Of a stretch of 19,487 nucleotides of DNA, positions 1,291-19,487 are shown piece after piece (positions within the stretch are counted from its first letter, which is position 1; every line of letters begins with the position of its first letter). The position numbers and the translations under genes were made by a program. Below the pieces are notes generated by a model. That model did no database searches. It was not told where the DNA came from and saw only the letters and a program-made list of their open reading frames with translations. Source of the stretch: a virus; UHGV virus genome UHGV-1272094. One strand, given 5' to 3'.

Positions 1291-1307
1291 TTATTAAAAC
1301 TCCTGAC

Positions 1308-1335
1308 AACAAAAAACCCACCGCGAAGTGGGTTT
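1308..1335 (-). terminator. Intrinsic-terminator-like hairpin between the chaperone genes and the tape measure gene
   Basis: Perfect 8-bp stem aaacccac/gtgggttt (1314-1321 and 1328-1335) with 6-nt loop. On the minus strand the stem is followed by TTTTTTGTTG. Confidence 0.4.
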
Positions 1336-1455
1336 CAGGCGACATAATAGTAGATATAGCGATTACGAGGCCACGCAATGCTTTTCTCCAGGAGCATCAT
1401 CGATTTAATTAAAGACACCATCACATCTCTGTAACAGAGTGTACGTAATTAACAA

Positions 1456-2225: not shown

Positions 2226-2273
2226 TCAATGCGTCCCCCTGTAGGGCAGTACCACAGGAGGAATAACGGAAAA

Positions 2274-3236: not shown

Positions 3237-3262
3237 AGGAGCCTCCTATGTCATTAATTGCG

Positions 3263-4811: not shown

Positions 4812-4814
4812 GTG

Positions 4815-4991
4815 TTACTCCTGAGTTTTCCAGCCCATAGCCTTCCAGTTGTCAACTTCATCAGGATGAACATTAGCGATAGTTGGTGCGCCGGGAAACA
4901 TCTGATAATCGGTCACCATAACCACTAACTCAATTTGCGTTTTTTGTGCGGCTTCACGCTGTGCTCTTTGCTCTTTAGTTAATCCGGCCAT
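4815..4991 (-). CDS. Small hypothetical protein (58 aa) between capsid and connector genes
   Basis: Not in the ORF track. ATG at 4989-4991, stop TAA at 4815-4817, no internal stops. Translation MAGLTKEQRAQREAAQKTQIELVVMVTDYQMFPGAPTIANVHPDEVDNWKAMGWKTQE. GGGGGG lies 3 nt upstream of the ATG. Confidence 0.4.
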   Translation of the reverse strand: MAGLTKEQRAQREAAQKTQIELVVMVTDYQMFPGAPTIANVHPDEVDNWKAMGWKTQE

Positions 4992-5000
4992 ATGCCCCCC

Positions 5001-5023
5001 ATTAAAAATGGGGCCGAAGCCCC
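5001..5023 (-). terminator. Terminator/attenuator hairpin just downstream of the major capsid gene
   Basis: Minus-strand GGGGC-UUCG-GCCCC stem-loop (plus 5010-5023) followed by AUUUUUAA. Lies 11 nt after the capsid stop at 5034. Confidence 0.5.
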
Positions 5024-5033
5024 GTTTGAATGT

Positions 5034-6173: not shown

Positions 6174-6271
6174 AATTAAATATTCCTTAAAAATTTGCGT
6201 AATTGTGAATAGATGGAGTAATGAGCTATCCAGCCCTGACACCAGCTCCCATCCGGAAGCTGACAAATGTG

Positions 6272-7036
6272 TTAATCAACGATTGTGATACCGTCTTTCA
6301 ATGCGTTTTGCTTACCTGCAACATCCAGTGCATCAAAAGCAGAGCGTTTCATCGTTTTCTGACCAATATCATGCTGTGTCGGACGGGAGCCGCCGCCATT
6401 GTTGCCACTGGCTTTCAGGATGTAGTCTTTCTGAGGGTAATTTTCGACAAGGAACTCCAGCGCCTCATCAAACTGCGCCAGTTCGCCAGGCTTCGCGCGG
6501 GAATAAATTTTGTTGCCGGAAGCGTCATAAGCAACGATCTTCCCTTCTTCCACTTTGAATGCCTGCCCGAAGCGGGCTTGTAATAAATCTGCCGGGATCG
6601 CAATTTTATCGGCAATATATTTTGAACCCGCAAAACTACCGCCAATCATAGAATCGTAAAGCTGCGTCTCCAGCATCTGAGAGCGTTGCTTTTCTTCATC
6701 TAATTGCTGCTGAAAATTTTTCGTAATTTCTGCCTTAACCTGGTCAACCTGTCCCGCATCGATCAGCTTTTTCTGGTCGATTTTTAACAGCATTTCCAGT
6801 GCCTCGATCGCCTTCTTCGGGTCTTCGATAGCGGCAAACTTAGCCAGTTTTTCCTCTGCAGCTTCTTTAGCCAGGCGATGATTTTTTGCCTCGCCATTAA
6901 GCTCTGTAATTTTTTTTATCGCCAGCGGTGCATCGAAGCCGATTTCTTTACCATCGTCGTGCACATAAACTGGCAGGCCAGCAGTATCAATTTCTGCGTA
7001 TTGTTTTCCGTTAATCTCGACCGTTTTCAGTTTCAT
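6272..7036 (-). CDS. Scaffolding protein, putative
   Basis: ATG at 7034-7036 (MKLKTVEINGKQYAEID...), 254 aa, charged helical region (...EAAEEKLAKFAAIEDPKKAIEALEMLLKIDQKKLIDAG...). Located between the MuF-like gene and the capsid gene. The ORF-track GTG extension to 7108 runs through the upstream hairpin. Confidence 0.6.
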   Translation of the reverse strand: MKLKTVEINGKQYAEIDTAGLPVYVHDDGKEIGFDAPLAIKKITELNGEAKNHRLAKEAAEEKLAKFAAIEDPKKAIEALEMLLKIDQKKLIDAGQVDQVKAEITKNFQQQLDEEKQRSQMLETQLYDSMIGGSFAGSKYIADKIAIPADLLQARFGQAFKVEEGKIVAYDASGNKIYSRAKPGELAQFDEALEFLVENYPQKDYILKASGNNGGGSRPTQHDIGQKTMKRSAFDALDVAGKQNALKDGITIVD

Positions 7037-7096
7037 ATTAGTACCTGGTTTAAGTCTTCCGACAGTTACGCTGCTCACCATCCGGATCGCAGCAAT

Positions 7097-7121
7097 AAAA
7101 AAGGCCACCCGAAGGTAGCCT
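7097..7121 (-). terminator. Terminator-like hairpin upstream of the scaffold gene
   Basis: Stem aggccacc/ggtagcct (7102-7109 and 7114-7121) with one mismatch and a cgaa loop. On the minus strand it is followed by TTTTTTATT. Confidence 0.3.
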
Positions 7122-7140
7122 GTTGTAATAAATGATTTAT

Positions 7141-8256
7141 TTAAATCCCTGCTTTTCTGAATACCTGTGCATCACGCTCACGGAGTTGCTTCAGCGTCAG
7201 CCATTCGCCTTTATCGGTGTAAAATTCATCTGGCGACATACCGCCATCCCGAATCAGCTTTGCCCGGGTTTCCCCCACAATCTGTTTTTGTCTGGTGTAA
7301 GGCTGACGCAAAAACCATTCCCTGTAGGTTGTATCTCCGGCCACCACGCCATCCATGCTGGCCCGCTCAGCCGGGGAAATATCACGAACATCAATACCCA
7401 GTTCCTTCGCTGATTTCAGAATGAACGTTTCCGTTGAGCGGCAGCAGAAATGAATTTTTCCCGGCCCATGCAAATAAGGCACACTGTGACCTACAGGTTT
7501 ATTATCCAGCGTATATTTGAGGCGATCCCTGATTCGACATTGTGGCGTAGTACGATTATCAAGCGTTGATAACCATTGCTTACCCTTAATCAAATCATTA
7601 TTCGCGCTGGCAAAACTCTCACGGGCAGTAGCAGCAAGATGTCCAACCGCTGTTTTTGCAATGCTGGCCGCATTAGCCCGGCTCATCTGCAATGCACCAT
7701 CCTGAAATCCCTTGCTGACATGTCCCCGAATTTTTCTTGCGATCTGCTCATTGGTATCCCCCAGCAAAAAACCCTGACGCACCGTATTTGTTATGCGTCT
7801 GAGCCGATCCGCCTCAAGATCCAAGGCCCACTCACTGAGCAGTCGTCCCTGGAATGGTCGCGCCATTGCAGCGGCGTAAAGTGCATCAGAAGATATACCA
7901 ACCAGAGGGTGAACATCAGCAACAAAATCAGGTAGCAGAGAATCAAACAGACTTAACTGATAACCAGCCTCATAAATTGCCAGCTCGTTCAGCTCTCCGG
8001 AGAGACTGGTAAACATGCTGTTAATAGCAGCGCGGTTAACCTCTCTGACACTCGCCAGAAGTGACTCCAGGCGCGTAACGGTAAAACTACCAGGATCGAG
8101 GCTGTCCAGTGCTACCAGCAGGCGAGCTGTAAGCTCCGCATCGCTGTCATTCAGTATTTTCACCATTCTGGCAGCCACACCAGTGCTATAGCGGGATATC
8201 CAGACTGCATGAGCAATTGATTCATCACGCAGCCGTTCATTCACGGTTTGCATCAT
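7141..8256 (-). CDS. Head morphogenesis protein (Mu F / SPP1 gp7-like minor head protein)
   Basis: 371-aa ORF immediately after the portal gene, overlapping its 3' end by 20 nt. The SPP1-like order terS-terL-portal-gp7-scaffold-MCP supports the call. Confidence 0.6.
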   Translation of the reverse strand: MMQTVNERLRDESIAHAVWISRYSTGVAARMVKILNDSDAELTARLLVALDSLDPGSFTVTRLESLLASVREVNRAAINSMFTSLSGELNELAIYEAGYQLSLFDSLLPDFVADVHPLVGISSDALYAAAMARPFQGRLLSEWALDLEADRLRRITNTVRQGFLLGDTNEQIARKIRGHVSKGFQDGALQMSRANAASIAKTAVGHLAATARESFASANNDLIKGKQWLSTLDNRTTPQCRIRDRLKYTLDNKPVGHSVPYLHGPGKIHFCCRSTETFILKSAKELGIDVRDISPAERASMDGVVAGDTTYREWFLRQPYTRQKQIVGETRAKLIRDGGMSPDEFYTDKGEWLTLKQLRERDAQVFRKAGI

Positions 8257-9643
8257 TGATTTCCATCAACATTACACTCTGATTTTTTAATTCATCGATC
8301 ACATCCTCTGGACGGGAATCCTGATCGATAAATTTCAACGCCTGCAACACCCGAACCGCATCAATCTGACGTATATCACCGCCCTGACGCAATGACTGAA
8401 CAGCCAGCGCGGAGGATGAGTCAAACACCTGGGCAGATACATCCAGTTCAGTGCGCACATCCACATTGCCACCGCAACTCTCTCCGCTCCATTCCGCCAT
8501 TATCTGGAGAATATTATCGAGGGCATCTTCGAGGGAGTTCGCCATTGTATAAAGCGGCGAGTGTTCCTGCATCCGCTCTTCATTAGTCTGATCAACAGAT
8601 TTGGTGGATGTATTTTCAGCCCGCAGAAGTTTAGCGCCGGCATGACGCATCTGATTTTCCAGCTTCTCAAGTGATGTTTCGCCAGATTCTATCGCTGCGC
8701 CACTATGTTCAACATATTCGAGGCCATTTTTTGTTCTGTCCTCAAAAATCGTAGCCGTGGATGCACCAACCGTCAGTTCTTCATTCCTGTCCAGCCCGTA
8801 GGCCACCAGCAATGGAACGCGGGCAACATGAAGAATATTGTCCTGCTCGCTCTGGCTTTGCCAGTGCTTGATATTCAGCAAGCCAAGATTAAGCAATGGC
8901 GGTGTACCACGCATAAACCCTGTTTTCTTCGTATACAGTGTTACCAGAGGAATATCATCACGGCTGGTATTCCATGACTCATGAAGCATCCAGACAGATT
9001 CGCCATTAGTACCTTCGCTGCGTCGATAAATTTCTACTCGACGGGGCATAATATGGCGGATCTGCTCCACCTTCTTCTGCCCGAAATCATCACCATCAAT
9101 AATGATGACCTCTTTTATACGCAAATCAGTGAGAACAACTTTCCCTTTTTCAACTTTCGATTTCCATCCAATAACCTGGCGTGGATTCAGCATCGTAACG
9201 TACGGGCGACCACCGGCCGCGTTTTCATCGGCTTTTGTCCGAATCTCGTTCATATCCGTTCGTGGATAGTCCACCAGCGCATGTGCCACACCATACTGAA
9301 ATGCGAGACTGAAAAATTGCTGCGCCCACACATCCAGTCGGCTCCCCTCCATGTCGATATTTTCTGCATATTCCCTGATTTTTTCCGGCGTTTCCTCACT
9401 CAATACTGTCGGCTCTGCAAATATGCGCCCAATATTTTGTTTGATGCTTTCTTCATACACAGGAAGTAACGTAGCCACAGACAGGCGTTTTTTATAAGCG
9501 TCTTCATCTTCATTAGGCCATTTGGGGAGATAATTTTCCCCCTGCCTGCGCATTTCAAGCGTACCGCCCATCAATGCGTCGTTAATATCCCACGCCTCCA
9601 GCATATCGTTATAGTCGAGGTTGGGTGTTGATATATCAGCCAT
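8237..9643 (-). CDS. Portal protein
   Basis: 468-aa ORF starting 2 nt after the terL stop (ATG 9641-9643, MADISTPNLDYNDMLEAWD...). Size and position are those of a portal gene. Confidence 0.75.
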   Translation of the reverse strand: MADISTPNLDYNDMLEAWDINDALMGGTLEMRRQGENYLPKWPNEDEDAYKKRLSVATLLPVYEESIKQNIGRIFAEPTVLSEETPEKIREYAENIDMEGSRLDVWAQQFFSLAFQYGVAHALVDYPRTDMNEIRTKADENAAGGRPYVTMLNPRQVIGWKSKVEKGKVVLTDLRIKEVIIIDGDDFGQKKVEQIRHIMPRRVEIYRRSEGTNGESVWMLHESWNTSRDDIPLVTLYTKKTGFMRGTPPLLNLGLLNIKHWQSQSEQDNILHVARVPLLVAYGLDRNEELTVGASTATIFEDRTKNGLEYVEHSGAAIESGETSLEKLENQMRHAGAKLLRAENTSTKSVDQTNEERMQEHSPLYTMANSLEDALDNILQIMAEWSGESCGGNVDVRTELDVSAQVFDSSSALAVQSLRQGGDIRQIDAVRVLQALKFIDQDSRPEDVIDELKNQSVMLMEINDANRE

Positions 9644-9645
9644 AA

Positions 9646-10947
9646 TTAAATCCGAAGTGATGTGACTCTTCCGGTCGGTTTGACAATAGGGAATTGCTTA
9701 ACGATGAAATAACCTCCGGCATCATTCGGGTGATCATTGCCAGATTTTTTATCAGGCTCCCCCTTATCATCCCAGACCTGTTGCTCCAGAGATTCGGCAT
9801 ATACCGGACAACGCTTCACATTAACTTTATAGCGACGCTCACCATTGGCATTGCAGAACATTGCATTCATTGAGTTAACGCGATCTTTTACTGGCGGGTT
9901 CGAGCTGTTCACCACAACGTTAAAACCTGCCTGCTTAAGCTGGGCTATATCCGTCGTACTTGCGTTACTTGATTTTCTGGAATCTCCGGAAGCATCTGGA
10001 TAAATATAAATCTCCCTCACTTTCCGGTAATCATGCCCGTCATACAGCCAGAAGCGTTCTTTAATGAGGCGGATCATATCCGGCGTATCGTAGGCATTGA
10101 TGATTTCAGTTACCGCACATGGAAGCCCCAAACGCAGCACATGGACGATTCCCGCCATCTTTCCAACGTTAAAATCCATCCCAATATAAATCGGCTCCCC
10201 TGGCTGCTCCACTTCTTCGCAATTATTCAGTTTCCGGTCAAACTGATGGTAAACAGTACCACTTGTCAGGTTAGTAAACCGTCCTAGAAGATAGGCTTTA
10301 ATCAGCTCTGGAGGGTATGATTCAAGAAGTGAAGGAATGTAATCTGCTGGCAGGTTCTTTTCATTATCGAAAGTAGATGCCTGCACCAGACCATACAGTG
10401 AGGCCAGCTCTGTTTTTTCACGCACGGCTTTAACAAACTGCTCGTAGACAAATTTGAATCCTTCCGGCGTGGTTGTAACGTCAATACCGTTGCGAAGTCC
10501 ATCAATCTTATAACGCATACGCGCAATTATCTTGCGCCACGCCGTTCTGGCTTTTTCCTTCGGCAAAATGTCCAGTTCATCCACCAGCGCATTACCAATT
10601 TTGAAACCGACGATCGTTTGTGGCTTCTCCATCGATCTGCAGATAGTGGTTCCCCGATACTGGCGTCCGTAATAAAAGTGAACCTCTTTATTTCCCTCAT
10701 TAATTTTTACGTTCAATCCCCAGTCAGCAGCAACTTCTTCCACTGTAGGGTAAAAAATATCGCGAATTTGGGGATACGTTGGCGCAAAATATCCCTGATT
10801 TATACCTGGATGCTCCCAAATCCCCTTGCATATGCCGCCACACCCAACCCATGTTTTGCCCGAGCCAAAACCAGCAATATAGGCTTTAAATTTATGGGGC
10901 ATTGAAAGAAATCGCGCCTGAGGCACATTAAGCGTCGGAGAGATCAT
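9646..10947 (-). CDS. Terminase large subunit
   Basis: Walker A motif in ...KAYIAGFGSGKTWVGCGG... Preferred ATG at 10945-10947 with AAGGAG 8 nt upstream, 433 aa. Overlaps the terS stop by 20 nt. Confidence 0.9.
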   Translation of the reverse strand: MISPTLNVPQARFLSMPHKFKAYIAGFGSGKTWVGCGGICKGIWEHPGINQGYFAPTYPQIRDIFYPTVEEVAADWGLNVKINEGNKEVHFYYGRQYRGTTICRSMEKPQTIVGFKIGNALVDELDILPKEKARTAWRKIIARMRYKIDGLRNGIDVTTTPEGFKFVYEQFVKAVREKTELASLYGLVQASTFDNEKNLPADYIPSLLESYPPELIKAYLLGRFTNLTSGTVYHQFDRKLNNCEEVEQPGEPIYIGMDFNVGKMAGIVHVLRLGLPCAVTEIINAYDTPDMIRLIKERFWLYDGHDYRKVREIYIYPDASGDSRKSSNASTTDIAQLKQAGFNVVVNSSNPPVKDRVNSMNAMFCNANGERRYKVNVKRCPVYAESLEQQVWDDKGEPDKKSGNDHPNDAGGYFIVKQFPIVKPTGRVTSLRI

Positions 10948-12022
10948 CTTCATCACTCCTTAATCTGGCATCAACCACATTAATATTGATCGCCACAGGC
11001 TGGGGATGTTCATTATCCTCCACCGTTTCGATCTCTTTGCGCAGCTTCTGGTTCTCTATTCTGCGCCGTTCAATTTCCAGTTCCTGTAGCCGCTTATCTG
11101 CACATAATGCCCCGCCAGCAGAAAGCAAACGCAACAATTCACGCCGGGCGGCAGCCTTATCCTCCAGCAGGATCTCAACACCGTATTTTCCGAGCTTTGA
11201 CCCTGCATATAATTGCCGCGCATCCCCATCAAGCAGTGTGGTATCAGCCATATAAAGCTGTCCTGTTCCCTCACCGCAGCACTTCGGGCAATCAGGATTG
11301 GGTATGGCGTTATCAACAAAGCCGAGGCCTCCATATTCCGGCTCGGGTTTACCATCTCTGGAGGCCTGTGCCGCAGCCTTATCGAATTCTGCAATATCAC
11401 GCCACTGGTAGAGATGATTCTCGCCCCAGCAATAACGGCAGTTAACACGGCGAAATTGTGCCAACTGATTGGGGTCGGCCTGGACAATGGCCATCAACTG
11501 GCTCACCAGTAAATCCAGGTCTGCGGTATAGCGTTTCTGGTACTGATTGCGGAAGTAGCTGATAGCACGATAAACCCTGGCATTTCTAAGCATACGGCTG
11601 GCGTTGCTGTTAGCTGTCGCACCTTGCCCCTCATAACCAGCCAGTCGGTATGCCTCTGTCGGCTTTTTCCCCTGAGCAACCAACATGGCGAATTTTGCCT
11701 GCTGGTCAGAAATACCGAATTCATCGGGGCAGAACGAAATTTCTTCCGTGTCCCCCTCAATCAGGAGTGCATCGGATACAGCCTTTTTTTTCTGAGATTT
11801 TCCGTTCTGCCTTTGCGCAGTCTGCGCAGTTTTTTTTCGCGCACTTTTTTGCGCAGTTTTGCGCATTTCTTTCTGCGCATTTTTCGGAGTTTTTTTGATG
11901 TAACGACGGGCTGTTGCGTAGTTCAGTCCCCTTGCTTCACACCATGCCACCGGAGATATACCGGAGCGGGTGTATTCAGCAATATACTCCTGCTGCAACG
12001 CCCCCCAGTCCGGTCTGCTCAT
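10928..12022 (-). CDS. Terminase small subunit, unusually long (364 aa) with extra domains
   Basis: Central segment ...QQAKFAMLVAQGKKPTEAYRLAGYEGQGATANSNASRMLRNARVYRAI... matches the conserved terS core as I recall it. N-terminal HTH-like region, Lys-rich linker, and C-terminal Cys-rich segments (CRYCW...CPKCCGEG) plus coiled coil. ATG 12020-12022 with AGGA upstream. Confidence 0.8.
   Translation of the reverse strand: MSRPDWGALQQEYIAEYTRSGISPVAWCEARGLNYATARRYIKKTPKNAQKEMRKTAQKSARKKTAQTAQRQNGKSQKKKAVSDALLIEGDTEEISFCPDEFGISDQQAKFAMLVAQGKKPTEAYRLAGYEGQGATANSNASRMLRNARVYRAISYFRNQYQKRYTADLDLLVSQLMAIVQADPNQLAQFRRVNCRYCWGENHLYQWRDIAEFDKAAAQASRDGKPEPEYGGLGFVDNAIPNPDCPKCCGEGTGQLYMADTTLLDGDARQLYAGSKLGKYGVEILLEDKAAARRELLRLLSAGGALCADKRLQELEIERRRIENQKLRKEIETVEDNEHPQPVAININVVDARLRSDEDDLSDA
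11814..11879. repeat. Array of six palindromic TGCGCA hexamers (one CGCGCA variant) separated by T-tracts, inside terS
   Basis: Copies start at 11814, 11823, 11838 (variant), 11850, 11860 and 11874, spaced 9-15 bp apart and each followed by T runs. The array encodes the Lys-rich linker of terS. Confidence 0.8.
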
Positions 12023-12025
12023 CAG

Positions 12026-12277
12026 TTAGTCCTGATTTTTATCCACCCTGAGTAGTTCGCGCAGAGCAAAGGCATCCCCTTTTCTGGCAAGCTTAAACAA
12101 TGCCGCTCGTAACTCGGCTTCACCTTTCGCTCTGCCCTTACGGATGGCCGCATAAAAATCTGTCATTGCTTCCCGATTTTCTTTCAGTCGGTTCAGATCA
12201 ACATCCAGAACGTCAGCGATTTGTTGTGCAGTCATCCGGCACGCTGCCAGAGACTCGACTTTCGAATACGGAATCAT
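12026..12277 (-). CDS. Small HTH-like protein of unknown function upstream of terS
   Basis: 83-aa ORF MIPYSKVESLAACRMTAQQIADVLDVDLNRLKENREAMTDFYAAIRKGRAKGEAEL... Stop is 3 nt before the terS ATG. Its 5' end overlaps the 3' end of the GT-like gene. Confidence 0.5.
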   Translation of the reverse strand: MIPYSKVESLAACRMTAQQIADVLDVDLNRLKENREAMTDFYAAIRKGRAKGEAELRAALFKLARKGDAFALRELLRVDKNQD

Positions 12278-13169
12278 TTGTCACCCCCATTGATATGCAG
12301 GGTGTCTTCTTCCTGTATTTTTCGTGAAGGATTTTTACTGCAGCGTTGTTCCAGGTGACCTGATGGTGAATGCGTTTATGGCTGGCACCCATCAGTGAGA
12401 TTTTTACGCACGACGGCGAATACATGACGGAGTAAAAACTTTTAACGTAGGTTCCGGAATCCAGATACAGCTCGGTCATTCCGCCGCTGTTTTTCTGCGT
12501 CTGTTTCTGCCCTAACTGGACAGCACCGATCGTCATAAACAATTCACCACAGCGACCGAGATTCGTGTACGTATTCACATCCTCGTTAATGCGCCCCATG
12601 AATGAGAACGGTCGATCAACCGAACAGATAAAGCTGTTCATTGCCTTGCGTTTCACCCACGAAGCATGGCCGCCATTGTCACCAAGAAAATCCCCGCCCT
12701 GCGACATAGCGATGGAAAGCGCGGGTATTGATTCGTAATACGCCAGCATTTCAGAAAGGATCGCATCCAGTTTCCTTATCGGGAAATAGGCCTGGTCATA
12801 GTTGCGATCCACCCGAAACTGGAACTCGTGATAATCATCATCGAGCTGAATGAAGTATTTACACCCGACCAGTTTTGCCAGGTCGAAACAGGCATTACGG
12901 GCGTAAAAAATTGAGCGGCGATCACCAAAATTATCGGCTTCGTCAAAACGACTGGCAATATCGGCTTTGGAAAATACCAGCACCTGTTCACCAAATTCAG
13001 CCATGTACTGATGCCGTGTCTTATCTTCATCATCAACAACGATAAAAATTTTCCCGGTATAGCCAGCACGACGCAACGTCCGGTAAGTCAGAACTTTGTC
13101 CGGTCGCCCGTGAGTCAGAATAAAGGCGCAAAAATCATCACGCATATTCCTCCTCCTCCTCCCCGCCAT
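12213..13169 (-). CDS. GT-A fold glycosyltransferase-like protein
   Basis: N-terminus AFILTHGRPDKVLTYRTLRRAGYTGKIFIVVDDED resembles the first strand/helix/strand of GT-A (GT2-like) enzymes. A DxD-type motif follows at ...YFIQLDDDYHE... Alternative ATG at 13145 gives 310 aa, with GGAGGAGGAGG just upstream. Confidence 0.55.
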   Translation of the reverse strand: MAGRRRRNMRDDFCAFILTHGRPDKVLTYRTLRRAGYTGKIFIVVDDEDKTRHQYMAEFGEQVLVFSKADIASRFDEADNFGDRRSIFYARNACFDLAKLVGCKYFIQLDDDYHEFQFRVDRNYDQAYFPIRKLDAILSEMLAYYESIPALSIAMSQGGDFLGDNGGHASWVKRKAMNSFICSVDRPFSFMGRINEDVNTYTNLGRCGELFMTIGAVQLGQKQTQKNSGGMTELYLDSGTYVKSFYSVMYSPSCVKISLMGASHKRIHHQVTWNNAAVKILHEKYRKKTPCISMGVTNDSVFESRVSGSVPDDCTTNR

Positions 13170-13932
13170 GCATGATCTCCACCATGCGCTGCGTCATTCG
13201 GACAAATCCATTTTCAATAGCCTGCTGATAATCAATGATCACCAGCGCCGACTCCTCGAAAAGGCACTGAATTTCAGCGGGGGCATGAGCGTAATAGTCC
13301 GCAATTCTGCTGAAATTAAACACTGTGTGACGTTCTGCCGCACACAGGAGGAATTTCTCAATATCAGGATCAAGGGACGCCGAACGTATCCGGCTGATCA
13401 GCTCCTGAGTTTTCGTATCGTCGTACAGTTCACTGATATCCGGTTTACCGCCCGACGGCTCATAAACAGGCGTATCAATTTTCGTCGTATACGGCTCCTC
13501 CTCATTTCCTGTACCGGGCAAAACATCCGTCAACAGTTCATCAATTTCTGTCGGGATGAAGCCTGTCAGGGAGACATCAAAATCAGCATTGATTAGGTCC
13601 GACAGCTCCATCCGCAACAGATCTTCATCCCAGCCAGCATTCATCGGCAGGCGATTATCTGCCAGGCGGTACGCCTTTTTCTGCTCATCCGTCAGGCCAG
13701 ACAGAACAATGACCGGAACAGAATCCATTTTGAGCATTTCAGCCGCCATAACACGACCGTGACCCGCAATAATTTCGCCCTTTTCGTCAATCAGCACCGG
13801 ATTAGTCCAGCCGAATTGCTTAATACTTTCTACCAGTTGTGCCACCTGCTCAGGGCTGTGCGTCCTGGCGTTGTGCGCATACGGTGACAATTCTTGTAAT
13901 GGGCGATAGACTATCTTTAATTTCTCGCTCAT
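13138..13932 (-). CDS. ParB-like nuclease domain (ParB/Srx fold) protein
   Basis: MSEKLKIVYRPLQELSPYAHNARTHSPEQVAQLVESIKQFGWTNPVLIDEKGEIIAGHGRVMAA... is a typical ParB N-terminal domain with the GxGR box. Acidic C-terminal tail GGEEEEEYA. ATG at 13930-13932. Confidence 0.8.
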   Translation of the reverse strand: MSEKLKIVYRPLQELSPYAHNARTHSPEQVAQLVESIKQFGWTNPVLIDEKGEIIAGHGRVMAAEMLKMDSVPVIVLSGLTDEQKKAYRLADNRLPMNAGWDEDLLRMELSDLINADFDVSLTGFIPTEIDELLTDVLPGTGNEEEPYTTKIDTPVYEPSGGKPDISELYDDTKTQELISRIRSASLDPDIEKFLLCAAERHTVFNFSRIADYYAHAPAEIQCLFEESALVIIDYQQAIENGFVRMTQRMVEIMHGGEEEEEYA

Positions 13933-13954
13933 ACAGCCTTGCTTTATGAATAAA

Positions 13955-13983
13955 ACGCACCCCAGCAGCCAGTGCTACTGGGG
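13955..13983 (-). terminator. Weak terminator-like hairpin downstream of trkG
   Basis: Stem ccccag/ctgggg (13960-13965 and 13978-13983) with an inner agc/gct helix. On the minus strand a UUUUAUU tract follows after a 4-nt spacer. Confidence 0.3.
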
Positions 13984-14069
13984 ACGGAGGGGTTGCTGGT
14001 AAAGTTAGGTATTGGATCAATGAGTGAGTCAACATAATATTAAACTCACAATTATAAATCAGCCATATA

Positions 14070-15545
14070 TTAGGAGCGCCAAAAAAAACCTGAAAACAAT
14101 ATAATAACAGGATAAATTTCAAGGCGACCAAGAATCATAGCTATGCACATTAAACATTTTGCAATGTCATTAAGCACTCCGAATGACGATGCAGTAGCCC
14201 CAAAACCTAATCCCATATTATTAATACATGCAGCCACTGTTGCAAATGATGTAAGAAAATCATATCCCATACCATTTAACACCAGTATAAAAAACACCGT
14301 GAAGAGAGTATAAAGAAAAAAGAAACTCCATACAGACCTCATTACACGATCTGTAACTATCTTCCCTCCTACATTTACACTCAACAACGCTCTGGGATGA
14401 GAAAGCTGATTTATCTCGTGTTTGCTTTGTTTGAAAAGTATAAGAAATCGAAGTGACTTAATTCCACCACAAGTTGAACCTATACATCCCCCAAAGAAAC
14501 TTGACAACAGCAAAAACACTATCGTGTGCGTGGGCCAACTTGCATAATCCTGCGTAGCTAAACCATTATCAGTGAGCATGGAGCTGGCAAGAAAAAACGA
14601 ATGAATAAAACTTCCATGCAAGTCATACATACCTATATGCCAGACCTGGAAAGAGGTAACAATGATCACCCCTAAGGCTATTAACAGAAAGAAACGAAGT
14701 TCAATATCTCTGATTAAAGGTTTTATCGTTTTCCTGCTAATAACAATATACCAAAGAGTGAAGTTGAAAGCCGATAGCAGGGAAAAAGAACGAGCCACCA
14801 GCTCAACCAAATAGTTATTAAAATATCCGATACTCTCGCTATGAGTTGAGAAACCACCAAGCGAAACTGTGGAAATCCCGTGACAAATAGCATCAAACAA
14901 AGGCATTCCTGCAAGTCTATAACAGACAATACAAGCAATACCTAATAAAGAATAAGTTATCCACAGTGTCCGTGACGTATCGGCCAGGCGGGGAGTGAGT
15001 TTGTCATCCTTAAATGGCCCCGGCATTTCTGACTGATAAAGCTTTGCACCACCAATACCCAATAATGGCAATACAGCAACCGCCAGAACAATAACTCCTA
15101 AACCACCTATAAAATTTAACTGTGACCGATAGTACAAATATGCCCGAGGTAATGAACTAACATCATCAATTACAGTTGCTCCTGTTGTTGTTATTCCAGA
15201 AACCCCTTCAAACAGAGCATCAATGAACGTTAAATTAAGTTCTGAGTCAATCCATAAAGGGAATGCACTAATAACAGAAAACAAAATCCAAAACATTACA
15301 ATTATAATAAACCCATCACGGGTACGTAATTGAATGCCAGATTTCTTAGTTGTATACCACGCTCCGCCACCAATGCAAAAAAATATAACGAAAGTTATAA
15401 AGAAAACGAACAGGCTTTTTTCTTTATAAAACAATGCTACAACCATTGGTGGCAACATTGAAAGACTATAGAGCCAAACCAGGAACCCACACATATGAGT
15501 AACAACTCTTACATGAGATGTATTCATATCTAAATATTCTTTCAA
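14070..15545 (-). CDS. trkG: TrkH/TrkG-family K+ uptake membrane protein (prophage cargo)
   Basis: Polytopic membrane protein with TrkH-family motifs (...FEGVSGITTTGATV..., GGxGG-type loops). Matches my recollection of E. coli TrkG, which is encoded in the Rac prophage. TTG start at 15545 has AAGGTGG 6 nt upstream; the ATG at 15527 gives 485 aa (MNTSHVRVV...). The gene is visibly AT-rich compared with its neighbours. Confidence 0.85.
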   Translation of the reverse strand: MKEYLDMNTSHVRVVTHMCGFLVWLYSLSMLPPMVVALFYKEKSLFVFFITFVIFFCIGGGAWYTTKKSGIQLRTRDGFIIIVMFWILFSVISAFPLWIDSELNLTFIDALFEGVSGITTTGATVIDDVSSLPRAYLYYRSQLNFIGGLGVIVLAVAVLPLLGIGGAKLYQSEMPGPFKDDKLTPRLADTSRTLWITYSLLGIACIVCYRLAGMPLFDAICHGISTVSLGGFSTHSESIGYFNNYLVELVARSFSLLSAFNFTLWYIVISRKTIKPLIRDIELRFFLLIALGVIIVTSFQVWHIGMYDLHGSFIHSFFLASSMLTDNGLATQDYASWPTHTIVFLLLSSFFGGCIGSTCGGIKSLRFLILFKQSKHEINQLSHPRALLSVNVGGKIVTDRVMRSVWSFFFLYTLFTVFFILVLNGMGYDFLTSFATVAACINNMGLGFGATASSFGVLNDIAKCLMCIAMILGRLEIYPVIILFSGFFWRS

Positions 15546-15664
15546 TTATAACCACCTTGCTGCAATATTATGATTATACTGTATAAAATTTAACTCCTCT
15601 TAGATCTTACTTCACTGTTCCTTATGAAACAATCATCAAAATGAATCATATTGTAGTTAAGATT

Positions 15665-16129
15665 TTACTTTAAACACTGCTCGGTTATGTATTGCTGAGC
15701 ACCTTCAAGTTGGGCCTGCATCATTACCAGTCGTTCCCGGAGGGTGAAATAATCCCGTTCAGCGGTGTCTGCCAGTCGGGGGGAGGCTGCATTATCCACG
15801 CCGGAGGCGGTGGTGGCTTCACGCACTGACTGACAGACTGCTTTGATGTGCAACCGACGACGACCAGCGGCAACATCATCACGCAGAACATCATTTTCAG
15901 CTTTCGCATCAGCTAACTCCTTCGTGTATTTTGCATCGAGCGCAGCAACATCACGCTGACGCATCTGCATGTCAGTAATTGCCGCGTTCGCCAGCTTCAG
16001 TTCTCTGGCATTTTTGTCGCGCTGTTCTTTGTAGGCGATGGCGTTATCACGGTAATGATTAACACCCCATGACAGGCAGACGACGATGCAGATAACCAGA
16101 GCGGAGATAATCGCGGTTACTCTGTTCAT
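15665..16129 (-). CDS. Rz: Rz i-spanin
   Basis: [80 protein letters not shown]... is near-identical to lambda Rz as I recall it. Its ATG overlaps the endolysin stop as ATGA at 16126-16129. Confidence 0.9.
15724..15909 (-). CDS. Rz1: Rz1 o-spanin lipoprotein, embedded in Rz in the +1 frame
   Basis: [56 protein letters not shown]..., with lipobox VVGC and a Pro-rich tail, lying entirely inside Rz. Matches lambda Rz1 from memory. Confidence 0.85.
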
Positions 16130-16623
16130 TGCTGACCCCACAAACAGATTTCACGCTCAATCTCACGACGAGTCATGAGACCTTTCCATTGCTTACCGCC
16201 AGCATATGTCCAGCGACGTAGCTGATCACATGCGCCTTTGATATCGCCCTGGTTTATTTTGCGAAGAAGCGTCGATGTTCTGAAATTGCCAGCACCCACG
16301 TTGTAAACGAATGAGTAAAGAGCGCCGCGCGTTGTTTCCGGTATATCGACTTTGATGTACGGGTTAATTTGTCTGGCGACCGTGGCAAGGTCTTTATTCA
16401 AGAGTGTTTTGCATTCTGCTTTGGTATACGTTTTACCGAGCATGATGTCTTTTCCTGTATGCCCGTGACATACAGTCCATACACCAACAATATCTTTGTA
16501 TGGTATGTAGCTGACACCTTCCAGACCATCGTTACCACTTGGGCCAGTGATTAACACTGATGCTATAGCAATTGCTCCGCCACCAATAGCAGCAGCAACG
16601 ACTTTTCGTAATGATGGAGGCAT
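16126..16623 (-). CDS. R: SAR endolysin (lysozyme, phage P21 R-like)
   Basis: N-terminal signal-anchor-release segment [30 protein letters not shown]..., then a T4-lysozyme-like core. Closely resembles P21 R as I remember it. TAATG overlap with the holin stop at 16623. Confidence 0.85.
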
Positions 16624-16838
16624 TATTCACCTCTCGCAGCCTTGCGCTTATCTTCTTTAATCTTGAAATAAAGGTTTGTCAGGTACGTCAGCAGGCCAAA
16701 TACCAGACTACCCAGCACACCGATTGCAGCCCACTGTGACGGAGTTACTCTATCGAGCAACTGTAAAAACCAGTAGCCAGCACTGCCTGCGGAGGTGCCG
16801 TAGGCAATGCCTGTTGAAATTTTGTCCATGGATTTCAT
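16623..16838 (-). CDS. S: Pinholin (P21 S-like) with dual-start motif
   Basis: [71 protein letters not shown]. ATGs at 16836-16838 (MKSMDK) and 16827-16829 (MDK), with GGAGGTGAGG upstream. The ORF-track 5' extension to 16895 is not supported. Confidence 0.85.
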
Positions 16839-16940
16839 AGCCTCACCTCCGCACGGAACGGATGGCATAGTTATTATGTGTAGGCTTTCAGACACATCAA
16901 TCAGAGCCTTAATTGATATATATGCTGGAGACGATGCAAT

Positions 16941-16964
16941 ATAAAAAGCTCGCCGTAGCGAGCT
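16941..16964 (-). terminator. Intrinsic-terminator-like hairpin between lipoprotein 1 and the holin gene
   Basis: Perfect 7-bp stem agctcgc/gcgagct (16947-16953 and 16958-16964) with cgta loop. On the minus strand it is followed by UUUUAU. Confidence 0.45.
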
Positions 16965-17089
16965 AATAAAATGTATTTCTCTGATATTATGTTTATTTGT
17001 ATTAGCTCAGACTTGACATCACAGGTTTCGTATATAGAACATCATCAAATCTGTCAGTTTGCTATGAATGAGATATAGTAATTGAAGAG

Positions 17090-17485
17090 CTAACCTCGCA
17101 TGTCAAAGCCAGATTTCTGAAAATCTCTGTAGACTTCCGGATTGTTGAAGGCCGGAAATTTGGCTTTATGAGCTGCGGACTTTATCGCTTCGCAATAGGC
17201 TTTATCACCGTTACTGGTAGATATTTTTAACGCCGTGCCATCCTGAGAGAATTCCATATGCAACCTGCATTTTTTCCCTTTCCAGTTATGCGGCTCATCA
17301 AGTTTGGCATTAATTGCAGCTCTGATTCCCCGCGCTTGCGCCCCCCATTCATCCTGATCATCCCAGCGTCCTGAACTGCAACTACCTGTAGCAGTAGTTT
17401 TGTGGCAATCTGAAGGGTGTAAAGGTGTGCATCCCGCAACAAAACCGACCCAAAAAGTCAACATAACGATTTTCTTTAATCCCAC
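17090..17485 (-). CDS. Lipoprotein with TolA C-terminal (domain III)-like module, copy 1
   Basis: GTG start at 17483-17485 with GAGGAG 6 nt upstream. Signal peptide MGLKKIVMLTFWVGFVAGC with lipobox VAGC. C-terminal ...GIRAAINAKLDEPHNWKGKKCRLHMEFSQDGTALKISTSNGDKAYCEAIKSAAHKAKFPAFNNPEVYRDFQKSGFDM aligns with copy 2 and with the TolA C-terminal domain as I recall it. Confidence 0.7.
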   Translation of the reverse strand: MGLKKIVMLTFWVGFVAGCTPLHPSDCHKTTATGSCSSGRWDDQDEWGAQARGIRAAINAKLDEPHNWKGKKCRLHMEFSQDGTALKISTSNGDKAYCEAIKSAAHKAKFPAFNNPEVYRDFQKSGFDMRG

Positions 17486-17563
17486 TTCTTGCTCCTCAAT
17501 CCATTAAAATCTCAGCAATAGTAGTTGTTACGTCCGCCACTGGCTCAGAGCTGACTATCCGCT

Positions 17564-17592
17564 AAATTTAGCTCAGTGCCGTAGCTGTGTCA
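17564..17592 (-). promoter_or_regulatory. Candidate sigma70 promoter for lipoprotein 1
   Basis: Minus-strand -35 CTGACA (17587-17592), 17-bp spacer, -10 TAAATT (17564-17569). Confidence 0.3.
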
Positions 17593-17635
17593 GAACAAAC
17601 CTAAGCCGAAACCGTTTATTACAAAACAATAAATA

Positions 17636-18064
17636 TCAGGGTTTAAAATCCAGCACCCCATTTTGAAATACTTTATATACTTCCGGCGAAGGGGGGGCAG
17701 GTATATCAGCATTCTTTATCGCATTCATCGCTTCACGACATAAATCGAGGTCTCCACTTTCTCTTTTAACCTCCAGTAGAAGGCCATTCGGGGCCATATG
17801 CATTCTCAGTGTACACTCTTTTCCTGAATACTTACTCGCATCCCCGAACTGTTTTTCGATGGCGCTCTTGATTTGATGGGCATACAGACGGATATCCTCA
17901 CTAACATCAGAAGTACGTTCAGATGAACTCACATACTGTGTCTCTATTGCTTTATCGGAGTAATATGATGTACGGTCATGATAATTTGTCGATACAGCAT
18001 CAGTGCACCCGATAATAATCCCACTAATAATCAACGTAAGAATTGATGCGCTACGAAAACCCAT
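17636..18064 (-). CDS. Lipoprotein with TolA C-terminal (domain III)-like module, copy 2
   Basis: ATG at 18062-18064 with GAGGA 5 nt upstream. Signal peptide MGFRSASILTLIISGIIIGC with lipobox IIGC. C-terminal ...YAHQIKSAIEKQFGDASKYSGKECTLRMHMAPNGLLLEVKRESGDLDLCREAMNAIKNADIPAPPSPEVYKVFQNGVLDFKP resembles TolA domain III (recalled ...QIKSAIESKFYDASSYAGKTCTLRIKLAPDGMLLDIKPEGGDPALCQAALAAAKLAKIPKPPSQAVYEVFKNAPLDFKP). Confidence 0.75.
   Translation of the reverse strand: MGFRSASILTLIISGIIIGCTDAVSTNYHDRTSYYSDKAIETQYVSSSERTSDVSEDIRLYAHQIKSAIEKQFGDASKYSGKECTLRMHMAPNGLLLEVKRESGDLDLCREAMNAIKNADIPAPPSPEVYKVFQNGVLDFKP
17942..18036. repeat. Left copy of a perfect inverted repeat of at least 95 bp, inside the 5' coding region of lipoprotein 2
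   Basis: Plus 17942-18036 equals the reverse complement of 19393-19487 at every position checked by hand. Identity stops abruptly at 18037/19392. Confidence 0.9.
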
Positions 18065-18093
18065 TTTTCCTCACATATGTCATATAGTAAAGG

Positions 18094-18123
18094 ATTATAT
18101 ATACCGTTGTTTTGGACGCTCAA
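18094..18123 (-). promoter_or_regulatory. Candidate sigma70 promoter for lipoprotein 2
   Basis: Minus-strand -35 TTGAGC (18118-18123), 18-bp spacer, -10 TATAAT (18094-18099), about 30 nt upstream of the ATG. Confidence 0.35.
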
Positions 18124-18651
18124 ACAGCGAATCAGATCAAATAAAACGCACATTTGTTAACATTTACACAAAGTCTGCGTGGGATATTCTGAAAGAATAT
18201 CCATAATGTGGAGAGAATCTATTGAAGTGCATGGTGCCGGGTGCCTCCCGGTGAACAAAATGTTCGTGATACCTGTCGGCGACAGAAAAGGTTAATGGTA
18301 TCACCCCACCGCACAGGGGGATTCACCATGCAGGAGTTTTCTTAGCAAACTCACTGCGCGCCCGGCAACTCCCAACCACATAAAATGCGGAGTTTGTGGT
18401 ATTTATGCATATAACTCGCAGGAATTATCTTAAAAAACTGATGTCGATCCGGATTAAAAAGAAGCAGGTCATCATCAGATGACTGGAAAAAAGGAAAAAA
18501 AAAATACTCATCATACAGTTTTGATTGCAGGGATGAGCCTGCTATGCACAATATGCAGAATATAAGCAAGATAAAAATATGCAGGCATATTATTTCGGAT
18601 TTTGTTATTAACACAACCTTTTTAATAATCATTTGGCATACAATAAACCAG

Positions 18652-18680
18652 TCCAAAAAGAACCGCCTAAACAGGCGGTT
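18652..18680 (-). terminator. Intrinsic terminator (minus strand) in the Q-to-lipoprotein intergenic region
   Basis: Perfect 8-bp stem aaccgcct/aggcggtt (18661-18668 and 18673-18680) with aaac loop. On the minus strand it is followed by CUUUUUGG. Confidence 0.5.
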
Positions 18681-19000
18681 GGTCAATACAAAGGATGCTT
18701 CGTCTTTATTATAGTAATCTGAGGCGTCGGGTGTCTTGTATCAGACAACATATTGTCCCGCTAAACAGCGAATTACAAACCACCCTGCAATGATCTCTCA
18801 TCTCATTTTATATGAGTTGACGACATCAGGATAACGCATCATCAGCCCCTGCCAAGAAATATCAAAACTCCCGCCAGCAATGTGTTATCACAATATTGTA
18901 AAAAAAACACAGCACCGAAACTATAACTGGTCTCCGTTATAATTTGGAGCAGAAAGACCAGTTGCCCAACTAGCAGCATTCTCCCCTGCTTTCCTGACGT

Positions 19001-19028
19001 AAAAAAAACCGCATTAAGCGGTTTTTTT
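19001..19028. terminator. Bidirectional intrinsic terminator downstream of the Q-like gene (tR'-like)
   Basis: aaaaaaaa-ccgc-attaa-gcgg-ttttttt: a GC stem flanked by an A8 run and a T7 run, so it can terminate either strand. Lies about 80 nt past the Q-like stop at 19109. Confidence 0.6.
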
Positions 19029-19108
19029 ACGATGTCCATGTCTGCAATCCGCCTCGCGATACAGCTGTGCGAAGCATAGCAAAATTGAAGCAGTTTATAC
19101 GTAAGAAA

Positions 19109-19426
19109 TCAAGCCATTTTCTCAGCAAATGATTCACGCATGGGAATATATAGGGCATACTCAGCAACAGCTAACCAATTAGCAATCCGTTTTTCGCATG
19201 TGCTAAAACACCACTCTGGGTGTCCATCATTTAGCAATTCAGCCATTTTGCGCTTAGTCATCCCCCGCCCTTCATAGCGTTGCCGGAGAATGCAAATCAA
19301 TCCTGGATGCTCTGCCAGCACCTCACTTATGACTCGATCAATACATAACGCCTCTGCATCAGTACAATGCGCCAGCCAGCTCTTTTGCTTGCCGTTGATT
19401 ATTAGTGGGATTATTATCGGGTGCAC
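19109..19426 (-). CDS. Late antiterminator Q-like protein, 5' end possibly truncated or chimeric
   Basis: ...INGKQKSWLAHCTDAEALCIDRVISEVLAEHPGLICILRQRYEGRGMTKRKMAELLNDGHPEWCFSTCEKRIANWLAVAEYAL... has the layout I recall for the short Q family (as in quuD). Its first 11 codons (MHPIIIPLIIN) lie inside the inverted repeat and mirror the lipoprotein signal peptide. Location upstream of the lysis genes fits. Confidence 0.5.
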   Translation of the reverse strand: MHPIIIPLIINGKQKSWLAHCTDAEALCIDRVISEVLAEHPGLICILRQRYEGRGMTKRKMAELLNDGHPEWCFSTCEKRIANWLAVAEYALYIPMRESFAEKMA

Positions 19427-19487
19427 TGATGCTGTATCGACAAATTATCATGACCGTACATCATATTACTCCGATAAAGCAATAGAG
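19393..19487. repeat. Right copy of the inverted repeat, truncated by the window end and overlapping the Q-like ORF start
   Basis: Reverse complement of 17942-18036. On the plus strand it encodes ...PLIISGIIIGCTDAVSTNYHDRTSYYSDKAIE, the same lipoprotein signal-peptide and linker residues. Extent beyond 19487 is unknown. Confidence 0.9.

Follow-up and report, generated by a model that had tools for sequence, protein, structure and literature searches.

Which functions lie between the antiterminator gene Q and the holin gene S in the virus genome UHGV-1272094, and is this interval controlled in the way of the slot in which Shiga toxin (Stx) phages carry their toxin genes? It is well established that prophages couple Shiga toxin, LT-II-associated toxins, ArtAB, and porins to their induction by carrying the respective genes as cargo between Q and the lysis genes. 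The order of Q, cargo, and lysis genes is thus known and nothing unusual (PMC9732031; bioRxiv 10.1101/651190), and as a layout it adds little to the textbook picture. We read the interval, with a probability of about 0.7, as a Q-dependent late regulatory cassette, in the sense defined in bioRxiv 10.1101/651190, combined with the cargo slot of a Rac-type lambdoid prophage of E. coli. In the window, i.e., the whole stretch of 19,487 nucleotides that was analysed, 2,270 nt separate the stop of Q (19109) from the start of S (16838), in agreement with the estimate of 2.3 kb in the first-pass annotation. The hairpins, the two lipoprotein genes, and the S21-type pinholin gene listed there were all recovered on the minus strand (Table 1). 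Terminase, head, and tail genes follow S, R, Rz, and Rz1 on the same strand; in relatives, the lysis genes are annotated as essD, rrrD, and rzoD.

Table 1 Features of the Q-to-S interval and its flanks (positions in the window)
Feature	Coordinates	Strand	Remarks
Inverted copy of 17942-18036 (5' part of lipoprotein gene 1), 95 nt	19393..19487	.	100% complementary
DUF1133 (AntQ-type, Q21-related) antiterminator gene, C-terminal 97 codons	19109..19399	-	Stop TGA 19111-19109
Late-promoter-like unit	19073..19112	-	-35 TTGATT 19112-19107, -10 TTCAAT 19089-19084, second hexamer TATGCT 19078-19073
Predicted leader RNA, ~74-77 nt	19001..19077	-	Ends at T1; positional equivalent of lambda 6S RNA, StxS, and IsrK
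T1 predicted terminator	19028-19001	-	A7-CCGC-TTAAT-GCGG-T8
AT-rich spacer, unannotated	18362..19000	-	Mosaic of non-coding backbone common to Q-to-S intervals of other lambdoid prophages
Spacer promoter-like site AAGACA-18-TATAAT	18737-18708	-	10/12 consensus matches
T2 terminator-like hairpin	18680-18652	-	Terminator scan; fold z -1.5
STnc100/PasD-family structured prophage RNA	18175..18361	-	Rfam RF02076
Sigma-70 promoter-like site TTGAGC-18-TATAAT	18094..18123	-	10/12 matches; precedes lipoprotein gene 1
Lipoprotein 1, 142 aa, TolA domain III	17636..18064	-	Lipobox IIGC, +2 Thr; PF06519 E 2.4e-23
Lipoprotein 2, 131 aa, diverged TolA domain III	17090..17485	-	Lipobox VAGC, +2 Thr; PF06519 E 1.3e-14
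T3 terminator-like hairpin + U-run	16941..16964	-	Terminator scan; closes lipoprotein cassette just upstream of holin gene
Lysis cassette	15665..16838	-	PF04971, PF00959, PF03245 matches
S21-type pinholin	16838-16623	-	PF04971 119.9 bits; MKSM dual start at 16838
SAR endolysin (R)	16623-16126	-	Hydrophobic N-terminus of the signal-anchor-release type
Rz	16141-15665	-	
Rz1	15909-15724	-	

The late-promoter-like unit has a -35 hexamer that overlaps the stop codon of Q, followed after a 17-nt spacer by a -10 hexamer in which position 2 is not the usual A. Located 5 nt past this -10 is the conserved sequence TA(N)GCT, here TATGCT. The window has a single occurrence of the motif, with 0.01 expected, and in a comparison set of about 28 enterobacterial loci the spacing of the unit was kept in 22 of 28, with Q proteins that are 52-100% identical. 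TATGCT is a candidate sigma-dependent pause element but could equally be a TG-extended -10; if it is the true -10, the start would shift to about 19066.

Of 27 related loci, 26 have a terminator 41-92 nt past the Q stop, and their stems comprise at least five different sequences. This conservation of position with varied stems gives strong support to T1 as the predicted terminator. Folding of T1 gave -15.9 kcal/mol with a z of -3.35 for the minus strand, as compared with -17.0 kcal/mol and a z of -4.35 for the plus strand. The earlier description of T1 as bidirectional was not upheld: it is suggested by folding of the single sequence, the A-tract is absent in most relatives, and no plus-strand gene converges on the site. 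The conserved promoter-terminator unit predicts both that transcription starts within 19030-19108 and that T1 ends a short RNA. Predicted likewise, the start in Salmonella loci coincides with the first base of the Rfam isrK match, and in two of these loci (L010 and L014) isrK is located 33 nt past the DUF1133 gene. This order agrees with the published AntQ-IsrK arrangement, an experimental precedent in which the short RNA ends at a terminator with partial read-through (PMC4825925), and counts in favor of the Q-dependent cassette. In a permissive Rfam scan of 16800-19487, STnc100 alone was significant, while matches of isrK (16.6 bits, E 1.7) and AgrB over the leader were sub-threshold.

The Q-like ORF (19109-19426) matches PF06576 (DUF1133) with 164.5 bits (cut-off 23.1), but only over profile positions 84-175 of 176. 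It is the C-terminal half of a DUF1133 protein, of which the first 8 codons stem from the inverted copy that takes the place of the N-terminal half and extends to the end of the window. The N-terminal 83 residues, among them the most conserved motif of the family, are absent; an intact gene of 180 aa is present in strain CI5. With the Q21 family profile PF06530 (Phage_antitermQ; cut-off 26), the fragment in the window scored 20.9 bits and a full-length relative 26.4 bits. A 21-member DUF1133 profile matched the Q21 structures 6jnx and 6p18 with E 8.6e-6, the next match being at 0.27, and the DUF1133 Q also matches PHROG 753, annotated as 'anti-termination protein Q-like'. As judged from these profile matches, the gene is distantly related to Q of phage 21; synteny places it in the family of Gifsy-1 AntQ. 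We know of no Q binding element for a DUF1133-type Q. DUF1133 proteins have been assigned as Q in Stx phages by HHpred (PMC8136144), and AntQ was reported to act globally, beyond its own promoter (PMC4825925). The genetics of Q proteins of the DUF1133/AntQ type have been studied, their structure has not, and the sequence-level description of the promoter-terminator unit given here is directly testable.

The lipoproteins had been proposed to be strongly induced during lytic growth. With the N-terminal 83 residues of Q absent, this is not supported as written, and Q-driven induction in this copy is doubtful because it needs a working Q, yet Q is cut in half. The truncation itself may be unreal: chances are about even that the inverted copy arose at a contig end as an artefact of assembly or of a chimeric read and that the source carries an intact or IS3-interrupted Q. 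The junction at 19393, at the extreme end of the window, carries a 7-nt microhomology (ATCAACG) typical of chimeras, was spanned by none of 5,426 complete E. coli genomes and none of 80 IMG/VR loci, and creates a chimeric Q ORF for which public assemblies held no exact match. In many genomes, the same Q gene is disrupted by IS3, the end of which is 3 nt from the junction position, and such a repeat would break a short-read assembly there. The window sequence adjoining the junction, however, is not IS3, and real microhomology-mediated inverted duplications leave an identical signature; the available sequence stops at 19487.

The disrupted Q also allows for a reading in which the late cassette is a decayed, dead remnant, the lipoproteins are made only from their own promoter (18123-18094) with transcripts ending at T3, and T1 and T2 act as insulators. 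Besides the truncation in the window and the IS3 insertions elsewhere, the position of the lipoprotein cassette between a 10/12 promoter-like site and a terminator would fit this. Moreover, in the closest complete genomes the prophage starts just upstream of the DUF1367 gene, adjoining host genes, and has no early region, which makes normal induction of Q doubtful. On the other hand, the late promoter, T1, and the lysis genes have stayed intact, with 99.9% conservation across 447 genomes, the same module is present within the late operon of phage mEp460, and a same-type Q could come in trans from another resident prophage. We consider such decay possible, albeit on the improbable side, and it would bear on the activity of this copy rather than on the identity of the architecture.

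The cargo of the slot consists of two lipoproteins, each with a lipobox signal peptide and the C-terminal domain of TolA (PF06519, cut-off 25), with scores of 82.6 bits for lipoprotein 1 and 54.6 bits for lipoprotein 2; they are 29% identical to each other. TolA domain III structures were the top PDB matches for both. Lipoprotein 1 aligns end to end with residues 334-421 of E. coli TolA (1s62, E 5e-28), and lipoprotein 2 matches TolA structures with E 5e-9. They are the only slot ORFs with Pfam or PHROG family matches and make up the only uncharacterised part of the interval. The pair is carried by about 8% of complete E. coli genomes; among sequenced phages, lipoprotein 2 was detected by tblastn in mEp460 only, and a full-text literature search on prophage TolA-like lipoproteins retrieved nothing relevant. 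The suggestion that these proteins may be expressed in the lysogen fits the promoter-like site 18123-18094 and T3. Since the scan yielded 16 promoter-like sites, with 9.7 ± 2.9 expected, that site is a consensus match only.

T3 folds with -13 kcal/mol (z -2.9) and is present with the lipoprotein cassette behind two unrelated Q types: the STnc100-lipoprotein-T3 module also occurs behind a lambda-type Q, in phage mEp460 and 27 IMG/VR loci. Unless the lysis genes have a separate promoter, transcription has to pass T3 in these lambda-type-Q loci.

The structured RNA element in front of the cargo matches RF02076 over the full model (positions 1-206) with 86.6 bits (gathering score 47, E 1e-17) and can be aligned with copies in H-19B, mEp460, and Klebsiella. 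Its terminal 3' hairpin has no U-tract here. Both this STnc100 element and the promoter-like sites had been overlooked in the first-pass annotation. In H-19B, an element scoring 178.6 bits is located 79 nt past stx1B; a distance of 75 nt past stx2 has been reported (PMC12370729). STnc100 appears as a backbone element of the slot across different Q types.

The proposed analogy with the position of stx was right, and it is backed by homology because the STnc100 family of the interval also follows stx1B in H-19B; the collinear spacer and the eplBA slot in Rac-SA53 add to this. Both backbone elements shared with Stx phages, STnc100 and the S21-type holin, are present. No stx or other toxin gene was found here between tR' and the holin gene, and the scan for tRNA genes found none in the window, though the slots of relatives carry them. 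Behind the same (DUF1133) Q family, the cargo differs from locus to locus and includes the eplBA toxin, tRNAs, a 189-aa protein, a cspA-type gene, and STnc100.

The spacer between T1 and STnc100 is collinear with a toxin-less slot of strain PG20180057, and in the slots of ETEC1747 and PG20180057, pieces of it have matches past the tRNA clusters. PGAP annotated no gene in it across 448 genomes. The spacer ORFs 18351-18686 and 18842-19039 were rejected as genes and treated as non-coding, having neither a Pfam match nor a PGAP annotation; 18351-18686 also has no PHROG match. T2, which lies within this segment, is a putative terminator suggested by single-sequence folding. It could instead belong to an independent small RNA of ~50 nt that starts at the promoter-like site 18737-18708, ~30 nt upstream of the hairpin, in which case T2 would be the terminator of that RNA and not a barrier in the late operon. 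Q-to-S intervals commonly harbor small RNAs (bioRxiv 10.64898/2026.05.13.724894), but the segment gave no Rfam match even at permissive thresholds and shows no similarity to the PasA or PasC loci. As the segment is known only as near-identical copies, covariation is uninformative for it. We regard such an RNA as decidedly unlikely. The possibility that a known Pas small RNA terminates at T2 or T3 was also considered and rejected: the PasA and PasC loci of E2348/69 (L039 and L040) share nothing with the interval, and PasB, located between tail genes in the tail region, was discarded as a source of either hairpin.

All three terminator hairpins claimed for the interval were thus found, with unequal backing: conservation speaks strongly for T1, weakly for T3, because all its copies are near-identical, and not independently for T2. 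It is very improbable that the hairpins as a group are chance features of AT-rich intergenic DNA without regulatory meaning. In favor of this, 15500-19487 contains no more terminator-like sites than chance would give (4, vs 3.4 ± 1.7 in shuffles) and T2 has a z of only -1.5; against it, the position of T1 is kept with varied stems in 26 of 27 loci and T3 travels with the cassette in two contexts. Chance is a plausible explanation for T2 only.

From the elements of the Q-dependent cassette, we infer the following course of late transcription. Transcription would start near 19077, at the second -10-like hexamer, and TATGCT could hold sigma-70 and thereby cause a promoter-proximal pause. When Q is absent, transcripts would stop at T1 and give a ~75-nt RNA, as with lambda 6S, IsrK, and StxS, the latter being the short pR' transcript of Stx phages. 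Once loaded, Q would make RNA polymerase resistant to terminators, enabling it to pass T1, the spacer with T2, STnc100, the two lipoprotein genes, and T3, and to transcribe the genes for the pinholin, the SAR endolysin, and the spanins as well as the remainder of the late operon. STnc100, lipoproteins 1 and 2, and T3 form a portable module; it has its own promoter-like site, and low-level expression in the lysogen is therefore possible. In the copy studied here, because Q lacks its N-terminal 83 codons, read-through would require a matching Q from another prophage; this does not apply if the junction arose in assembly.

The lipoprotein pair could affect sensitivity to colicins or filamentous phages. 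A more specific and, in our view, unlikely proposal is that the two proteins are outer-membrane-anchored TolA-domain-III decoys under dual control, with STnc100 in their leader. If so, a low level in the lysogen would protect the host by titrating group A colicins and g3p of filamentous phages, ligands that depend on TolA domain III. A late Q-driven burst would put host TolA in competition for its partners and weaken the outer-membrane tethering by Tol-Pal, as an accessory lysis or vesicle-release function.

Among known systems, the AntQ-IsrK locus of Gifsy-1 (PMC4825925) has a Q of the same family, with DUF1133 homologues that are 83-88% identical and stand 33 nt upstream of Rfam isrK matches. 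In both, the stop codon of Q and the -35 overlap, and a ~77-nt RNA with an intrinsic terminator and partial read-through downstream, known there, is predicted here from the sequence. The leader sequences are unrelated, however, and the second -10-like hexamer of the E. coli promoter is not seen in the Salmonella-type promoter. The Gifsy-1 cargo is orf45-anrP-isrJ with a C4-type RNA, in contrast to STnc100 and the TolA-like lipoproteins.

The cassette of phage 21 (bioRxiv 10.1101/651190) has the same order of elements, i.e., Q, pR', a sigma-dependent pause element (a candidate one here), terminator, and late genes. The Q proteins are distantly homologous and the lysis module likewise consists of an S21 pinholin and a SAR endolysin. 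Between single sequences, however, the Q similarity is marginal, and judging by the aligned positions DUF1133 carries an insertion, estimated at ~25-30 residues, when compared with Q21. In the interval described here, a cargo slot of 2.2 kb lies between the terminator and S.

In Stx phages (H-19B, 933W, and relatives), too, cargo sits between Q/tR' and a holin of the S21 type, and an STnc100-family element is located near the cargo, albeit downstream of it (PMC12370729); relatives of the present prophage carry tRNA genes in this slot. Here, STnc100 is upstream of the cargo genes and has no U-tract terminator, the toxin is absent, and the Q of H-19B (144 aa by annotated coordinates) is of another family. 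Rac-SA53 is reportedly among the LT-II / pertussis-like-toxin Rac prophages of Jobling 2016. This prophage (GenBank KU052037) is of the same type, with the gene order DUF1367-YbcO-DUF1133 and cargo between Q and the holin gene. Unlike in the present interval, that cargo consists of the pertussis-like toxin genes eplBA, with LT-II past the lysis genes; holin and endolysin are of other types and the promoter region has diverged. Lambdoid morons are represented by lc in PA-2, nmpC in DLP12, and bor and lom in lambda. The STnc100-lipoprotein-T3 module resembles them in being an accessory cassette in the late operon with its own promoter-like site and a putative terminator, and differs from them in its cargo, a pair of TolA-domain-III lipoproteins.

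Read along the minus strand, the window represents the late region of an E. coli lambdoid prophage of the Rac type, with 100 % identity to strain CI5 and others over positions 1-14100 and 99.9 % identity to 447 complete genomes over 16600-19402. The closest complete genomes carry this prophage without its early region, the stretch from integrase to replication being missing. In these genomes, for example CI5 (L002:2711-3863), the prophage starts approximately 800 nt upstream of the DUF1367 gene, beside what are apparently host genes (DUF1971, MFS transporter). From the stop codon of the antiterminator-like gene Q to the start of the pinholin gene S, the interval measures 2,270 nt, in line with the 2.3 kb proposed earlier. 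This late operon has a second cargo gene, the potassium transporter gene trkG (14070-15545), placed directly after the spanin genes and before those for terminase and head, as it is in the Rac prophage of K-12.

Features of the late region and of the Q-to-S interval
Feature	Position	Strand	Basis or remark
DUF1133 gene (Q)	stop codon 19109	minus	first in gene order
Putative -35 TTGATT	19112-19107	minus	alignment of Q-downstream regions
Putative -10 TTCAAT	19089-19084	minus	alignment of Q-downstream regions
Second -10-like TATGCT	19078-19073	minus	alignment of Q-downstream regions
Gap without annotated genes	~1 kb	minus	after DUF1133 gene
STnc100	18361-18175	minus	Rfam, full-length, 86.6 bits (gathering score 47); not in first-pass annotation
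Promoter-like site	18123-18094	minus	upstream of lipoproteins, sequence scan
Lipoprotein 1, TolA C-terminal domain	18064-17636	minus	
Lipoprotein 2, TolA C-terminal domain	17485-17090	minus	
essD, S21-type holin	16838-16623	minus	
rrrD, lysozyme		minus	hydrophobic N-terminus as in signal-anchor-release (SAR) endolysins
Rz, Rz1, then trkG, then terminase/head/tail genes		minus	end of gene order

The gene preceding the slot had been called Q-like, which is right at the family level. Its ORF (19426-19109) matches PF06576 (DUF1133) with 164.5 bits, over profile positions 84-175 of 176 only, and falls below threshold on PF06530, the phage 21 Q family. The intact 180-residue DUF1133 protein of CI5 scores 26.4 bits on PF06530 (cut-off 26), and its PHROG match is 753, "anti-termination protein Q-like". 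When a profile of 21 family members from Escherichia, Salmonella, Citrobacter, Klebsiella, Enterobacter, Buttiauxella, and others was compared with structures, Q21 (6jnx and 6p18) was found at E 8.6e-6, the next match being at E 0.27, and the alignment was collinear across most of the chain. DUF1133 proteins have been assigned as Q in 13 Stx phages on the basis of HHpred (PMC8136144). In a Salmonella locus (L014) and in one titled E. coli ECMA0423 (L010), homologues with 83-88 % identity precede Rfam isrK matches by 33 nt. AntQ of Gifsy-1, the expression of which interferes with termination, was published at the same position relative to isrK (PMC4825925); judged by this synteny, AntQ is a member of the DUF1133 family. 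In both loci, a C4-type antisense RNA accompanies isrK after the DUF1133 gene (L010:4088-4276, L014:4088-4268).

When the sequences after the Q stop codon were aligned for 25 genome loci, four phages, and the window, a fixed architecture emerged: TTGNNN overlaps the stop codon or lies close to it, TT(C/G/A)AAT comes 17 nt later, and TA(N)GCT another 5 nt on, with an intrinsic terminator 40-90 nt beyond. Of 28 loci, 22 have the full promoter motif, which occurs once in the window (0.01 expected). A late promoter with a sigma-dependent pause element behind it, as defined previously (bioRxiv 10.1101/651190), would show such tandem -10-like hexamers; TATGCT with its TG could instead be an extended -10. 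Depending on the reading of TATGCT, transcription is predicted to start at 19077 or at about 19066, within the interval 19030-19108 where a start had been anticipated. In Salmonella-type loci, with TTGACT over the Q stop, 18 nt, and TATATT, the start predicted likewise falls precisely on the base where the Rfam isrK match begins, which supports the method. The leader-promoter -35 of these Gifsy-1-type AntQ/isrK loci overlaps the Q stop, as it does in the E. coli type. The short terminated RNA postulated earlier holds as a prediction from the conserved promoter and the first hairpin: a leader of 65-77 nt, with its 3' end at 19001-19008.

All three terminator-like hairpins of the first-pass annotation are present, at 19028-19001 (T1), 18680-18652 (T2), and 16964-16941 (T3). 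T1 reads A7-CCGC-TTAAT-GCGG-T8 and folds with -15.9 kcal/mol on the minus strand (z -3.35) and -17.0 kcal/mol on the plus strand (z -4.35). The A-tract that gives it a bidirectional look is not conserved in relatives, and nothing converges on it. T2 and T3 both came from a consensus scan (fold z -1.5 and -2.9). Since the 4 terminator-like sites given by the scan equal the shuffle level (3.4 +/- 1.7), their number is no evidence by itself and conservation must carry the argument. A T-run hairpin follows the promoter unit in 26 of 27 loci, with at least five stem sequences (CCGC/GCGG, CCCGC/GCGGG, GACGC/GCGTC, GCCCGAGG/CCTTGGGC, and GGCCGC/GCGGCC), and the position of T1 is conserved, whereas the segment with T2 is known solely as near-identical copies, which provide no independent support.

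In 448 genomes, the segment 19000-18362 carries no annotation, and its ORFs gave no family matches. Pieces of it resemble the non-coding DNA that follows the tRNA clusters in the Q-to-S intervals of other prophages, and it is collinear with the toxin-less slot of E. coli O2:H6 PG20180057. That slot (L036:2815-3925) is filled by four STnc100 copies in tandem, preceded by a methyltransferase gene and tRNAs. A near-consensus promoter-like sequence, AAGACA-18-TATAAT (10/12 matches), is located some 30 nt upstream of T2; together (18652-18737) they could specify a tiny independent transcript of roughly 50 nt, albeit one that matches no known RNA family.

The STnc100 element in the window belongs to a family reported 75 nt after stx2 (PMC12370729), related to PasD and typical of the Q-to-holin interval (bioRxiv 10.64898/2026.05.13.724894). 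In phage H-19B, such an element (178.6 bits) lies 79 nt after stx1B and ends in a canonical terminator. In contrast, the 3' hairpins of the window copy (18175-18200) and of that in phage mEp460 are AU-rich and lack a U-tract. STnc100 thus adds no fourth terminator, and the window copy is unlikely to be a small RNA that terminates itself.

The two lipoproteins have the lipoboxes IIGC (lipoprotein 1) and VAGC (lipoprotein 2), each with Thr at +2. As Thr at this position directs lipoproteins to the outer membrane under the usual sorting rule, both are predicted to be anchored there. Lipoprotein 1 aligns end-to-end with residues 334-421 of E. coli TolA (E 5e-28) and resembles a host domain that was captured; lipoprotein 2, a paralogue with 29 % identity, is more diverged (E 5e-9). 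The promoter-like site upstream and T3 downstream would frame the pair as a moron. STnc100, both lipoproteins, T3, and the holin make up a portable module: of 80 IMG/VR loci, 45 show the context of the window, and 27 have tRNAs after a lambda-type Q (PF03589), which is the arrangement of mEp460. Provided that the lysis genes of mEp460 lack their own promoter, T3 must there be passed by polymerase that an unrelated Q has modified. The pair is found in approximately 8 % of complete E. coli genomes and, among 50,697 phage records, in mEp460 only. A full-text literature search found no paper on prophage TolA-domain-III lipoproteins, and this cargo is the sole lead left in the interval.

The DUF1133 gene is represented in the window by its C-terminal part only. 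From 19393 to 19487, the 95 nt exactly repeat, in inverted orientation, the 5' part of the lipoprotein 1 gene (17942-18036) and are joined to the middle of the Q gene via the 7-nt microhomology ATCAACG. Lost at the junction are the N-terminal 83 residues and, with them, the invariant LESVWIQGKLRMWGRWS motif of the family, which aligns with residues 13-31 of Q21. As it runs to the end of the window, the inverted copy could be either a real inverted duplication or rearrangement, or a contig-end chimera or assembly artefact. The junction is spanned in none of the complete E. coli genomes examined and is absent from all 80 IMG/VR loci, and no record of the chimeric ORF was found. In many genomes, an IS3 end is located 3 nt from the Q breakpoint of the window, and many of the best-matching genomes carry this insertion, their matches beginning at query position 85 or 86. 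The DUF1133 Q gene is therefore often inactivated. In Br_190_kylling (L001:4743-6002), the IS3 element splits the gene 3 nt from the window breakpoint (~19400).

Strong induction of the lipoproteins during lytic growth, as suggested in the first-pass annotation, requires a working Q and is doubtful for this copy, in which Q is truncated or cut by an artefact. Since the closest complete genomes also have no early region, the lipoproteins may owe their expression chiefly to their own promoter, or to a Q supplied in trans. The likeness to the stx slot is borne out in position and backbone by STnc100 after stx1B in H-19B and by the varied cargo behind the same Q family: the pertussis-like toxin genes eplBA in Rac-SA53 and, in other relatives, tRNA-Thr and tRNA-Gly, a 189-aa protein of unknown function, or a cspA-type gene. 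Such placement has already been termed a common synteny for phage toxins (PMC9732031), and the interval is thus an ordinary instance of a known arrangement.
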